From a bacterium (GTDB lineage Bacteria > Patescibacteriota > Microgenomatia > Daviesbacterales > UBA10151), in the NCBI GenBank assembly GCA_021790255.1, contig JAJYIE010000006.1, positions 1 through 46,853 of the forward strand: a stretch of DNA of 46,853 nt. Reading direction: 5' to 3'. Positions 40,639 through 43,491 of this stretch are shown here, piece after piece (the stretch's first letter is position 1; every line of letters starts with the position of its first letter). A model generated the notes under the pieces. That model did no database searches and had not been told where the DNA came from. It worked only from the letters and a program-made list of their open reading frames with translations. A program made the position numbers and the translations under genes.

Positions 40639-40899
40639 CCGAAAGCATTTAGCCGTGAATCTTCCTGCTGGCCGATATGAACCAAAGCTACCCTTTCCAG
40701 CAGGGGTCTTTTGACATGGTACTCATAACTGGCTGGTTCTGTCAGGACAGCGTGCTCATTACATTCATTCGGAAACCAGTTTCTAACCAAAGCCTGCAAT
40801 AACAAGACTTCCCCCGCACTAAGCTGCCTGGTATCTGCCGGCTCATGTTTTTATGTTTCAACAGTCAGGTTTATCGCCTCATTTCAGTAAATTTAACTC

Positions 40900-40925
40900 A
40901 TCCCGGCTGGACAACCAGCCGGGAT
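40900..40925. repeat. Perfect 11-bp hairpin
   Basis: ATCCCGGCTGG-acaa-CCAGCCGGGAT, with no U-tract. Confidence 0.7.
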
Positions 40926-40944
40926 ATGCTTTTGGATTGAGAAA

Positions 40945-41214
40945 TTACCCAGCCCGGTAGATAGCTACGCCAGGCTGTTTTGTTTTTAGTACAAAATGAT
41001 GGTTAGAGCTTTCTCCTCTGGCTATGCGGACATCCCGCTGCTCCGGTACGCTAACACTTATAGCGTCTCCTTCGGTAGTTGGCGTATGAGAAGGTCTTTC
41101 ATCTACCCCAAACCTGTTACTTTTCCATCTTAATTCAGCTGAAAGAGGATCAAACATTCTGGCCATTTCAGCATCATTCGTCCGACCTTCTTGTTCTGTG
41201 TGTCTTTCATTCAT
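40945..41214 (-). CDS. Small hypothetical protein (89 aa), first gene after the Ile/Leu/Val attenuator
   Basis: AAAGGGGGTGA SD then ATG at 41214 (MNERHTEQEG...). Confidence 0.7.
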   Translation of the reverse strand: MNERHTEQEGRTNDAEMARMFDPLSAELRWKSNRFGVDERPSHTPTTEGDAISVSVPEQRDVRIARGESSNHHFVLKTKQPGVAIYRAG

Positions 41215-41243
41215 TGTTATCACCCCCTTTCATTTTTGTGTAC

Positions 41244-41269
41244 AAAAAACCTCCCTTGTGGGGAGGTTT
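41244..41269 (-). terminator. Attenuator terminator (3:4) of the minus-strand leader
   Basis: On the minus strand: AAACCTCCC-cacaa-GGGAGG-TTTTTT. Confidence 0.8.
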
Positions 41270-41294
41270 CCTCTTCTTTTAGGTTTTTAATTTT

Positions 41295-41390
41295 TTACCT
41301 AAAAGACCTCCCCGATTTGACTCCAATAAGAAGGAGTCCTCCGAGGAGGCTGATAATAATAACCAAAACCGGCGAAACTGATAAATTCAT
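41295..41390 (-). CDS. Ile/Leu/Val-rich leader peptide, 31 aa (MNLSVSPVLVIIISLLGGLLLIGVKSGRSFR)
   Basis: ATG 9 nt after a TAAAAT -10 box. 15 of 31 codons are I/L/V. Overlaps mutually exclusive hairpins ahead of a terminator. Confidence 0.75.
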   Translation of the reverse strand: MNLSVSPVLVIIISLLGGLLLIGVKSGRSFR

Positions 41391-41399
41391 GTTTTTAAG

Positions 41400-41442
41400 A
41401 TTTTAATCCACTATTGCCAGGCTTGTCAAGTTGTAGTAAGAT
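41400..41442. promoter_or_regulatory. Overlapping divergent sigma70 promoters
   Basis: Minus strand: TTGACA (41429-41424), 18 nt, TAAAAT (41405-41400). Plus strand: TTGCCA (41414-41419), 17 nt, TAAGAT (41437-41442). Confidence 0.72.
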
Positions 41443-41453
41443 TTAAAAAACCA

Positions 41454-41525
41454 ATGATGATTTTCCGGACTAGTTTAACAAGCTTTTACTATTACTTTAC
41501 CTCCATAAAACGGGAGGCCTTTTGA
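41454..41525 (+). CDS. Phe/Tyr leader peptide, 23 aa (MMIFRTSLTSFYYYFTSIKREAF)
   Basis: ATG 11 nt after the -10 box. Tandem TTT TAC TAT TAC TTT codons lie directly before the alternative-pairing segments. Confidence 0.75.
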   Translation: MMIFRTSLTSFYYYFTSIKREAF

Positions 41526-41560
41526 CGTAGGTTAAAAATACAGTCAAAAGAAAGTAAACA

Positions 41561-41587
41561 GCCTCCCAGAAATGGGAGGTATTTTTT
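41561..41587 (+). terminator. Attenuator terminator (3:4) of the plus-strand leader
   Basis: GCCTCCCA-gaaa-TGGGAGGT-ATTTTTT (GNRA loop plus U-tract). Confidence 0.82.
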
Positions 41588-41614: not shown

Positions 41615-41797
41615 GTGGGTGCACAAAGAGTGAAGGAGATGGAACCGGCGATTCCCTTAGATCGGGTGAGTTTAAAGAACAGCAAGCTTAAGCAACCCGG
41701 TGAAGATATTAAAGATGATCTGATCTGGAAATCTTTATTGGTTGAAACAACCAGGCCGAAAATGATCAGAGCCAGGCGCGGATTGCGGGCAAGATGA
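41615..41797 (+). CDS. Small hypothetical protein (60 aa, Arg-rich tail), first gene after the Phe/Tyr attenuator
   Basis: Perfect AAGGAGGTGA SD (41599-41608) before a GTG start. Confidence 0.68.
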   Translation: MGAQRVKEMEPAIPLDRVSLKNSKLKQPGEDIKDDLIWKSLLVETTRPKMIRARRGLRAR

Positions 41798-41850
41798 TGA
41801 TCAAGAAGCTAATTGTTTAAGCATACCAAAGAAAGAAGGAGGTGAATTTT

Positions 41851-42111
41851 ATGAGCGAAACAGAACCAGTAACTTTGGAGTTAATTTCCATGCCTGCTGT
41901 AGCTAAAGCGGCGCTTAAAGAGGTCAGGCGAAGCCGGGGAAGAAAGCGCATTTTTCCATGTCAGGAAGGAGGTGGCTGCTTGGAACTTAACATTAATAAC
42001 TTTTGCGCAGCTAATAAGTGTGCGTATTCGGCGCTAGATAAGGCATTGGTATGTCATCTGCGGGGAGGAGTTGTCAGAATGGTGGCCTTGCCGCGGCAGG
42101 CGGTTAGGTAG
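41851..42111 (+). CDS. Small basic Cys-rich hypothetical protein (86 aa)
   Basis: AAGGAGGTGA SD (41836-41845) before ATG 41851. C-x5-C-x8-C-x4-C-x10-CH spacing. Confidence 0.68.
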   Translation: MSETEPVTLELISMPAVAKAALKEVRRSRGRKRIFPCQEGGGCLELNINNFCAANKCAYSALDKALVCHLRGGVVRMVALPRQAVR

Positions 42112-42156
42112 GTTTAGTATTGTCAAGGATATATGAAGTTGCTATGATCAACGCGT

Positions 42157-43491
42157 ATGGAAAGAACGCTGATCGTAGACTGTAACGATAAAATTGACCA
42201 GGCAGTTAAAATCTGCGGTTGGGTGCAGGTACGCCGCGACCACGGAAAGATTGTTTTTCTGGATATTTCAGACCGCTCCGGTGTTCTTCAGGTGGTGGCA
42301 GCCGGGGAGCAGGCAGGGGATTTAAATGCCCAAGATGTGGTTTGTATCGAAGGTAAAGTTGAGAAACGCCCGGAAAATCTGGTTAACCCCAATCTGTCCA
42401 CTGGCACCATTGAACTTCAGGCCGGCAAAATTGAGGTGCTGTCAAAGGCTGCAGAACTTCCCTTTGACATGGGGGCCAAGGAGTTGAACCTGCAACTACC
42501 GACCCTTCTGGATTATCGTTCTTTAACCCTTCGCTACCCTAAAGTTAGGGAAATTTTTCGGGTGCAATCAGTATTGATGGAAGCTTTCCGTCAGGCTGCG
42601 ATCAACTTGGGCTGCGTCGAGATTTTTATTCCGACCATTGTTGCTGCAGCGACCGAAGGCGGTGCAGAAGTTTTTCCGGTTGATTACTACGGTCACAAAG
42701 TCTATATGTCCCAAAGCCCCCAGCTGTATAAACAGATGCTCGTCCCGGTTTTTGAAAGAGTTTTTACTATTGCCCTCGCCTACAGGGCGGAGCCATCAGT
42801 TACAACCCGGCATTTGTCCGAGTCTACCCAGATGGATTGCGAACTGGGCTTTGTGACATTTACCGAGCTAATGGATTACCTGGAAGAAGTTGCTACCCGA
42901 ATGCTTCAGGCTGTCGAGGAAAAATGTCCTGAGTCCTTGAAAGTTTTCGGAGTGGAGCCGGTTGCGTTCGGAAAAATACCCCGGCTGACATTGCGGGAAG
43001 CTCAGGAGATAATTTTTAAAGAAACCGGGCGGGATAACCGGGCCGAAAAAGACTTAGCTCCTCAGGATGAAATTGATATTTGTAAATGGGCTCTCAAAAA
43101 CCATAACAGTGATTTAGTGACAATTACCCATTTCCCAACTACTAAACGGGCTTTTTATACCATGCCCGACCCGGACAACCCGGAATACAGCCTAAGTTAT
43201 GATCTTTTATTCAGGGGAACTGAAATGTTAAGCGGCAGTCAAAGAATTAGTGATTATGAGCAACTGGTTCAGGTAATTAAAGATCGGGGAATGGACCCGA
43301 AAAACTTTGAGATGTATCTTTTGGCCTTTAAATATGGCATGCCGCCGGAGGGGGGATTTTCCTTTGGTCTCGAGAGGCTAACCATGAATGTTTTGAAGTT
43401 GTCAAACATCCGCGAAGCTTCACTTTTCCCCCGGGATATGGAGAGAGTTGACATCAGGCTTTCCACCTTGGGGAAAGACAAAGGACAGTAA
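42157..43491 (+). CDS. aspS: Aspartate--tRNA ligase, short archaeal-type (probably non-discriminating Asp/Asn)
   Basis: OB anticodon domain, TEGGAEVF, QSPQLYKQ, YRAEPS.TTRHL.E and GMPPEGGFSFGLERL...FPRD. No bacterial GAD insertion. Confidence 0.93.
   Translation: MERTLIVDCNDKIDQAVKICGWVQVRRDHGKIVFLDISDRSGVLQVVAAGEQAGDLNAQDVVCIEGKVEKRPENLVNPNLSTGTIELQAGKIEVLSKAAELPFDMGAKELNLQLPTLLDYRSLTLRYPKVREIFRVQSVLMEAFRQAAINLGCVEIFIPTIVAAATEGGAEVFPVDYYGHKVYMSQSPQLYKQMLVPVFERVFTIALAYRAEPSVTTRHLSESTQMDCELGFVTFTELMDYLEEVATRMLQAVEEKCPESLKVFGVEPVAFGKIPRLTLREAQEIIFKETGRDNRAEKDLAPQDEIDICKWALKNHNSDLVTITHFPTTKRAFYTMPDPDNPEYSLSYDLLFRGTEMLSGSQRISDYEQLVQVIKDRGMDPKNFEMYLLAFKYGMPPEGGFSFGLERLTMNVLKLSNIREASLFPRDMERVDIRLSTLGKDKGQ

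Follow-up and report, generated by a model that had tools for sequence, protein, structure and literature searches.

A probable branched-chain leader-peptide attenuator ahead of an orphan gene in a Microgenomatia bacterium

The leaders of the enterobacterial ilvGMEDA (ilvL), ilvBN and leu genes are the classical branched-chain leader-peptide attenuators, and the classical attenuation model describes such an element as a kinetic switch. Here we analyze a putative element of comparable design on the minus strand of a 46,853-nucleotide (nt) contig (JAJYIE010000006.1; hereafter "the window", whose coordinates are used throughout) from a bacterium of the class Microgenomatia (Patescibacteriota); it reads from position 41429 to 40945. 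Leaders whose open reading frame (ORF) starts at the transcription start site have been described in Streptomyces lividans for leuL, ilvL, trpL, alaL, thrL and metL; according to that report (PMC8079986), hairpins, in part with U runs, follow downstream, and some of these leaders gate aminoacyl-tRNA synthetase genes and a transporter. The trpL locus of Sinorhizobium meliloti is reported (PMC6614838, PMC7298713) to provide an attenuator RNA (rnTrpL) and a leader peptide (peTrpL) that both act in trans. The open-access PMC and bioRxiv literature yielded no paper on leader-peptide attenuation in the candidate phyla radiation (CPR), Patescibacteria or Microgenomates; the reading proposed here is that of a known mechanism in an unreported lineage and with an unusual target.

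We propose that the window element is probably a ribosome-mediated leader-peptide transcription attenuator, which would sense charged tRNA-Ile, -Leu and -Val and gate read-through into an orphan ORF of 89 amino acids (aa). Its parts are as follows.

41429..41400, minus strand: promoter, -35 TTGACA (41429-41424), 18-nt spacer, -10 TAAAAT (41405-41400), 11 of 12 consensus matches
41390..41295, minus strand: leader ORF, 31 codons and UAA (41297-41295)
41325..41357, minus strand: predicted sensing codons 12-22 (I I S L L G G L L L I), from ribosome-mask folding with the A site at codons 12-21
41350-41341, minus strand: segment 1, GCCUCCUCGG, 5' arm of the 1:2 hairpin, from folding and orthologue alignment
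41319..41338, minus strand: inner hairpin within 1:2, GACUCC (41338-41333), then UUCUUAUU, then GGAGUC (41324-41319)
41315-41306, minus strand: segment 2, UCGGGGAGGU, partner of segment 1 or of segment 3
41305..41276, minus strand: hairpin 2, CUUUUAGGU, 12-nt loop, ACCUAAAAG, with the leader UAA (41297-41295) in its 5' arm and loop
41267-41260, minus strand: segment 3, ACCUCCCC, 5' arm of the terminator, partner of segment 2 (antiterminator) or of segment 4 (terminator)
41269..41244, minus strand: intrinsic terminator, AAACCUCCC(C), ACAA, GGGAGGUUU and U6; stem 41269-41247, U run to 41244
41214..40945, minus strand: gated 89-aa orphan ORF with its own Shine-Dalgarno sequence GGGGGTGA, ATG 30 nt beyond the terminator
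40926..40899, both strands: bidirectional terminator hairpin closing the gated unit

The leader encodes the peptide MNLSVSPVLVIIISLLGGLLLIGVKSGRSFR, in which 15 of 31 residues are Leu (7), Val (4) or Ile (4). Segments 1 and 2 (GCCUCCUCGG and UCGGGGAGGU) form 10 bp around GACUCC/GGAGUC, and the antiterminator, in which GGGGAGGU pairs with ACCUCCCC over 8 bp, excludes the terminator by sharing its 5' arm. A first-pass annotation of the region, made by a model from the letters alone, had described a 31-aa leader of this composition, a protector formed by 41350-41341 with 41315-41306 and an alternative pairing with the terminator arm at 41267-41260; all of these stand, and each of the coordinates and pairings it gave is correct. 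To its list we add the promoter, the stop-codon hairpin (41305-41276) and the absence of a Shine-Dalgarno sequence upstream of the leader ORF, whereas neighbouring genes do have sites of the AAGGAGGTG type. The leader ATG (41390) lies 9 nt past the -10 box, and the mRNA would be nearly leaderless, with a predicted 5' untranslated region of about 0-3 nt. The 176-nt transcript folds at -59 kcal/mol, compared with -38.2 +/- 3.8 in 200 dinucleotide shuffles (z = -5.5), none of which is as stable. A promoter-like site within the leader ORF (TTATCA-17-TATTAT, 41356-41384, minus strand, 9 of 12 matches), composed largely of Ile and Val codons, is probably a chance match.

The 3' part of the element recurs in related genomes. 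BLASTN with 741 bases around it against 40 relatives gave a match in 18 of the 24 other genomes of the same family and in one of 16 from other families, and nearly all matches cover 41312-41244 alone, a stretch made up of segment 2, hairpin 2 and the terminator; what is conserved is thus the RNA switch rather than the N-terminal end of the coding sequence. The corresponding pattern (GGAGG, 20-50 nt, CCTCC, 4-9 nt, GGGAGGTTTTTT) occurs, frequently in several copies to a genome, in 83 of the 96 members of the Daviesbacteria-like family and in 88 of 301 genomes sampled from the taxonomic class, most of the latter counted by pattern match alone, and a reversed control pattern has no match in any genome of either search. 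We catalogued 92 distinct elements, at loci picked partly by the hairpin-2 signature, so that the proportions of the leader classes given below are biased. In nearly all of them an ATG-initiated ORF ends shortly past the first GGGAGG; a TTGAC..TAnnnT promoter is present in most, its -10 box a median 8-11 nt upstream of the ATG.

The chief reason to regard this module class as ribosome-mediated attenuators is that in sister elements the codon run matches the pathway of the downstream gene. Twelve leaders carry Ile runs (e.g. ..EVIIIT.. or ..IIEIIIT..; among them L010 and the second element of L005), two of which precede acetolactate synthase (TPP_enzyme N/M/C domains) and four LeuA/CimA-type synthases (HMGL-like and LeuA_dimer), while the 14 leaders with aromatic runs (e.g. 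..FYFWF.., ..YFWFRYF.. or ..FFYFFFAF..) include three before DAHP synthase and two before prephenate dehydratase, one of these being followed in turn by DAHP synthase. Ile leaders were never seen before an aro gene, nor aromatic leaders before an ilv gene; the remaining leaders of both classes are followed by ORFs lacking a Pfam match or by small unscanned ORFs. Other families of the taxonomic class contain a leader with five Thr codons before an AA_kinase gene (L160, genome G195), a CCC leader before a PALP (cysteine-synthase-type) gene (L161, G263), another Cys-run (CCC) leader before a PIG-L deacetylase (L158, G029) and a Phe-run (FFFF) leader before an AstE_AspA-type deacylase (L149, G204), and the attenuator module seems to be class-wide. 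The gated gene belongs to the metabolism of the putatively sensed amino acid in the sister Ile, aromatic, Thr and Cys elements and not in the window element, and BLASTP clustering found no leader of the window's own class directly before an ilv- or aro-type gene.

That class, here termed long ILV (for Ile/Leu/Val), is the most widespread, and 54 orthologues of the window element were collected from it. The leaders are 29-42 aa long (consensus MSK...IDLKRVEILLSLLLVLL.GA.LGGLFR) and usually divergent from aspS, from which they are at most 1.5 kb away in 11 of 64 aspS loci, all closest relatives; 46 of 55 long-ILV leaders have a TTGAC..TAnnnT promoter no more than 25 nt from the ATG (median gap 11 nt). 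In 54 of 54 orthologues the ATG-initiated ORF ends 4-11 nt past segment 2. Retention of the ILV runs among homologues and compensatory changes in the stems, two of the checks that the first-pass annotation had proposed for its reading, are both seen, the latter in part. Over a sensing window of 12 codons (codons 11-22 of the window copy, I I I S L L G G L L L I, 9 of 12 ILV) the orthologues have 75% Ile, Leu or Val (Leu 48%, Val 16%, Ile 11%), while the N-terminal part has 35%. The conserved GGGAGGUCUUUUUAGGUAA is not read in a single frame: 40 orthologues have ..GGLFR with stop UAA, 13 ..GRSF with stop UAG and one otherwise, and the window copy reads ..SGRSFR by way of a compensated one-base shift; the stretch is therefore kept as RNA and stop site, not as peptide.

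Structure counts were made on a plain MAFFT alignment (A2), in which kin are not independent, so that the counts overstate the number of events. In the terminator-state structure 88.0% of cells are paired, with a covariation score of 0.176 against 0.147 for shuffled alignments (0 of 500 shuffles reach it), which falls to 0.09-0.12 once the partners are shifted by 1-3 columns. Of the 6 pairs of the inner hairpin, 4 have changes in both arms, and in the terminator 98.6% of cells are paired. The 2:3 helix is paired in 93.3%, with six nearly invariant core pairs and a seventh that is UA in 30 sequences, UG in 11 and CG in 7. Among 88 elements of all leader classes, a C after GGAGG is accompanied by a G before CCUCC in 17 of 18 cases, and a U after GGAGG by A (39) or G (16); the link between C and G is not explained by the terminator, because A and G both pair with the terminator's U. 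RNAalifold on another MAFFT alignment (A1) recovered part of the structure, with hairpin 2 misaligned, and hairpin 2 was judged from single-sequence folds, which predict it with at least 5 bp in 51 of 54 orthologues.

How a ribosome on the leader might select between these pairings was modelled by folding the nascent transcript as far as segment 3 while masking all of it up to 12 nt past the A-site codon. With the A site at codons 12-21, the antiterminator GGGGAGGU:ACCUCCCC forms, stacked on hairpin 2; an A site at codon 11 or before leaves 1:2 in place, and one at codon 24 or later, or at the stop, masks segment 2. We would accordingly picture the switch as follows. RNA polymerase would start some 0-3 nt ahead of the AUG and a ribosome would load at the nearly leaderless 5' end; hairpin 2, which directly follows 1:2 and has a U-rich start, is a possible pause site. 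With Ile, Leu and Val plentiful, the ribosome would reach the UAA in hairpin 2 and cover segment 2 (GGGGAGGU), segment 3 would pair with segment 4, and the terminator would release a leader RNA of about 150 nt. In the absence of translation, segment 1 would sequester segment 2 and the terminator would likewise form. If, on the other hand, the ribosome stalled at codons 12-21 (I I S L L G G L L L), it would cover segment 1 and leave segment 2 free to pair, stacked on hairpin 2, with segment 3 ahead of the synthesis of segment 4; no terminator would form and the orphan would be transcribed.

The gap between terminator and orphan would be too short for a separate promoter. It measures 30 nt up to the ATG in the window, and in 30 of 91 family elements the downstream ATG is within 2 nt of the terminator U run, so the downstream genes are reachable by read-through alone. 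In those 30 copies GGGAGG of the terminator 3' arm stands at Shine-Dalgarno distance and would be hidden in the terminator form, implying combined transcriptional and translational control there, the window copy excepted.

The attenuator reading, already put forward in the first-pass annotation, draws its support from comparison, in the conserved architecture and the codon-to-gene match in sister elements, and from the mask folding, and several observations weigh against it. Equilibrium folding of the complete RNA, segment 4 included, always favours the terminator, even if segment 1 is masked, so that antitermination must be kinetic. Segments 1-4 show hardly any variation in their cores, with 3 of 8 pairs never varying in 2:3 and in the terminator, and the covariation support rests on flanking pairs and the inner hairpin. 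Near-invariant CCUCC/GGAGG segments beside freely covarying hairpins with a single partner are what one would expect from mutually exclusive pairings. Of the minimum free energy folds of the 54 orthologues, no more than 35 take the canonical three-hairpin form and 8 the 2:3 form; across orthologues the two states are calculated to be nearly equal in energy. The ORFs behind long-ILV leaders are heterogeneous, and the gated gene of the window is an orphan whose predicted structure is of low confidence (pLDDT 0.36). The two best hits of an E-value-level Rfam scan of the region speak for the reading in that both are to an attenuator model, RF01859 (Phe_leader), at full model length, one for this element (41241-41391, minus strand, 31.8 bits) and one for a divergent second element described below (41468-41587, plus strand, 24.8 bits), but both scores are far under the gathering score of 55 bits; the match is a resemblance and not membership. 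Finally, as shown below, the window genome has no match to the biosynthetic genes sought, and without them the classical logic of a self-regulating pathway is inapplicable.

The most serious competing explanation takes the ORF for the gene of a small, functional membrane peptide, with the hairpins and terminator as no more than its structured mRNA and the gene's end; a milder form gives it the dual role of attenuator and peptide. The leader does resemble a single transmembrane helix, with a 20-residue hydrophobic stretch followed by K..R..R, many orthologues share the N-terminal motif MSK..IDL[KR][KR].E (MSK..IDLKRVE), and the unit is retained in a genome lacking ilv genes; all of this counts against a purely regulatory leader. 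Yet the C-terminus is read in differing frames (GGLFR in 40, GRSF-type in 13 and another in one of 54) while its nucleotides are conserved, and the window copy lacks the MSK..ID N-terminus. Among 8 equal-length orthologues codon position 3 was no more variable in the N-terminal part than positions 1 and 2 (entropies 0.56/0.67/0.69), a sample too small to weigh for or against selection on the peptide. Neither Pfam nor NCBIfam has a family that matches the peptide, the downstream gene lacks a separate promoter, and the identical 3' module serves 20-24-aa non-hydrophobic leaders ahead of biosynthetic genes. We therefore hold a membrane peptide to be unlikely, and still less likely that the product is the terminated leader RNA of about 150 nt, acting as a small RNA in trans with the orphan incidental. 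A strong promoter, a strong terminator and a single copy kept in most family genomes regardless of the downstream gene would suit such an RNA, for which the attenuator RNA and leader peptide of S. meliloti are the precedent (PMC6614838, PMC7298713); against this, downstream ORFs keep strong Shine-Dalgarno sequences and often start at the U run, which argues that read-through is used, and a function in trans would be compatible with attenuation rather than exclusive of it.

Nor does the element look like a relic, an attenuator that once served since-lost ilv/leu genes and now acts as a constitutive terminator or decays. Four relatives (G001, G019, G014 and G009) do have ilvB or cimA/leuA behind the unit, genes that the window genome lacks; however, the long-ILV leader there stands before an orphan that it gates itself, and separate Ile-run leaders serve the ilv genes. 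In the window genome all parts are intact (promoter with 11 of 12 matches, open ORF, 10-bp 1:2, 8-bp 2:3, terminator), and the orphan keeps a Shine-Dalgarno sequence and a weak similarity to its positional counterpart, so we regard decay as very improbable. Type I toxins are small hydrophobic peptides with structured mRNAs, and the window peptide resembles them in size, hydrophobicity and its highly structured mRNA, as would be expected if mRNA structure controlled the translation of a toxin. A consensus scan showed no antisense promoter, whether convergent or overlapping, either across the ORF or behind it, and the sole nearby plus-strand promoter points away and drives the second attenuator. 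In place of the patchy or multicopy distribution of a toxin there is a single syntenic copy across genera, whose C-terminal frame shifts among orthologues and which matches no family; a type I system is the least credible of the alternatives, and we give it almost no weight. The attenuator reading remains the one we favour. A T-box or riboswitch was also considered and rejected, as neither gave an Rfam hit and a translated leader with codon runs accounts for the family.

The source genome (G000; 941 kb in 45 contigs, of which the window is contig 4; 91.6% complete) gives the switch little to regulate in the classical sense. TBLASTN with the relatives' acetolactate synthase, CimA/LeuA, three DAHP synthases and prephenate dehydratase found no match in it, and neither did Pfam ILVD_EDD_N and KARI_C, searches that both match 14 of 14 control genomes; given the completeness, the ilv, leu and aro genes are likely to be absent. 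With no ilv or aro genes found in the genome, the switch would gate an orphan only, and the observation of the first-pass annotation that only orphans, and no ilv/leu genes, follow the element is borne out. No Pfam family was found for the 89-aa protein, its sole match among 5.8 billion clustered proteins, in a search at near lengths, is itself, and its Atlas structural neighbours all have TM < 0.5, none of them usable. It is weakly similar to its positional counterpart in one relative (G008; 29% over 65 aa, pairwise E = 9e-5). Orphans are common in this position: with all leader classes pooled, the downstream ORFs are singletons in 58 of 91 cases (BLASTP 1e-4), and a loose DP[TLS] motif occurs in 14 of 91. 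In G001, G019, G014 and G009 the gene order is aspS, long-ILV leader, 1-3 small orphans, Ile-run leader and then ilvB or cimA/leuA, and the window genome retains the first unit of this order (aspS, long-ILV leader, orphan) and lacks the remainder. It has two module elements in total, both within this intergenic region. Over the whole window no Rfam family was found at gathering level, and ARAGORN found no tRNA or tmRNA. None of the sequencing runs listed as containing the locus is recorded as RNA, and two metatranscriptome runs of the same study contained nothing matching it, a blank that is no evidence either way. Many of the contigs with an aspS 60-75% identical to that of the window are titled 'uncultured Gammaproteobacteria bacterium', and these are probably mislabelled bins.

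The second element of this region is predicted to be an attenuator of the Tyr/Phe type. It lies back to back with the first, the divergent promoters of the two overlapping.

41414..41587, plus strand: second, divergent attenuator, promoter TTGCCA-17-TAAGAT at 41414-41442
41454-41525, plus strand: leader ORF MMIFRTSLTSFYYYFTSIKREAF, ATG at 41454, TGA at 41523-41525, near-leaderless
41500-41504, plus strand: segment 1, CCUCC
41512-41519, plus strand: segment 2, GGGAGGCC
41519-41550, plus strand: hairpin at the stop codon
41561-41580, plus strand: terminator, U run to 41587

Segments 1 and 2 form a mini 1:2 hairpin of the CCUCC/GGAGG type. The one DNA run covering the locus, which may be the source of this DNA, has T instead of C at 41503, within segment 1 (CCTCC), which would turn a C-G pair into U-G. 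Two small orphan ORFs (41615-41797 and 41848-42111) lie downstream, followed by aspS (42157-43491), which has a promoter-like site of its own at 42120-42148. Aromatic leaders of relatives offer some observations of separate interest: at L024 (11213-11332, genome G017) a 323-aa ORF follows a leader that has four Tyr codons in a row (MGKLINKYYYYNNFSKGGGLA), and a 380-aa ORF follows another aromatic-run leader; neither ORF has a Pfam match, and both are candidates for unrecognised aromatic-pathway enzymes.

Two orthologues of the window element stand before genes of recognisable family. In G082 (L052) the most window-like leader, MTLAIKQNIITVLSGLLLIWGKSVGGRFR, is found directly before a Peptidase_S51 gene, and in G080 (L051) an orthologous long-ILV leader directly before a gene with a RelA/SpoT HD domain; such targets suggest, and would fit, a response to amino-acid shortage. 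One can go further and suppose that the ILV- and Tyr/Phe-type attenuators serve as charged-tRNA sensors uncoupled from biosynthesis in a host-dependent auxotroph, controlling a starvation regulon of fast-evolving small proteins (in sister genera of a dipeptidase and a RelA/SpoT-type enzyme), with the leader RNA or peptide perhaps acting also in trans; we offer this tentatively, as an idea that may well prove wrong. If it were true, classical attenuation would be a general nutrient-sensing device of Microgenomatia, beyond the feedback control of biosynthetic operons. CPR bacteria have few recognisable regulators and their nutrient sensing is largely unknown. Here one reusable module (leaderless leader ORF, GGGAGG segment, stop-codon hairpin and CCUCCC/GGGAGG-U terminator) appears across one CPR class with runs of Ile, ILV, aromatic, Thr or Cys codons, and the window copy would be a switch kept in a genome probably unable to make the amino acids it senses. 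For annotation, the module is a simple signature by which dozens of so far unannotated regulatory sites could be marked in each lineage, and it gives a testable handle on which small genes answer amino-acid starvation in an uncultivated symbiont.

Compared with the enterobacterial ilv/leu attenuators, the window element has the same kind of leader ORF, about 30 codons long and rich in Ile, Leu and Val, the same arrangement of an ORF-overlapped 1:2 pairing, a 2:3 antiterminator and a 3:4 terminator with U run, and a stop codon sited so that a terminating ribosome would block segment 2. It differs in that its mRNA would be leaderless and lacks a Shine-Dalgarno sequence, that all four segments are of the CCUCC/GGAGG type, that the whole 1:2 hairpin lies inside the ORF and an extra hairpin bears the stop codon, and that its gated gene is an orphan and the genome showed no ilv/leu genes. 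No sequence homology to these leaders was shown: the peptide matches no Pfam family at E up to 0.1 and no NCBIfam at E up to 10, and the other leader peptides have no usable match in either database. The resemblance to ilvL claimed in the first-pass annotation thus holds for the design, while homology is undemonstrated, the sub-threshold Phe_leader being the best Rfam match. With that family, the pheA attenuator of gamma-proteobacteria, the element shares an AUG at the start of the model and a terminator that aligns as GCCUCCC...GGGAGGC-U, whereas its leader is not Phe-rich and the middle helices align poorly, with many non-standard pairs. The leaderless leaders of S. lividans resemble it in having the ORF at the transcript start, hairpins thereafter and, in some cases, a non-biosynthetic target; as described in PMC8079986, they come from another phylum, are much shorter (12-29 aa), lack the shared CCUCC/GGAGG module and have targets tied to the cognate amino acid. 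A trans target or peptide function of the kind reported in PMC6614838 and PMC7298713 is not indicated for the window element, for which no search for targets was made, and the S. meliloti trpL locus nevertheless sets a precedent for keeping an attenuator unit without its pathway.

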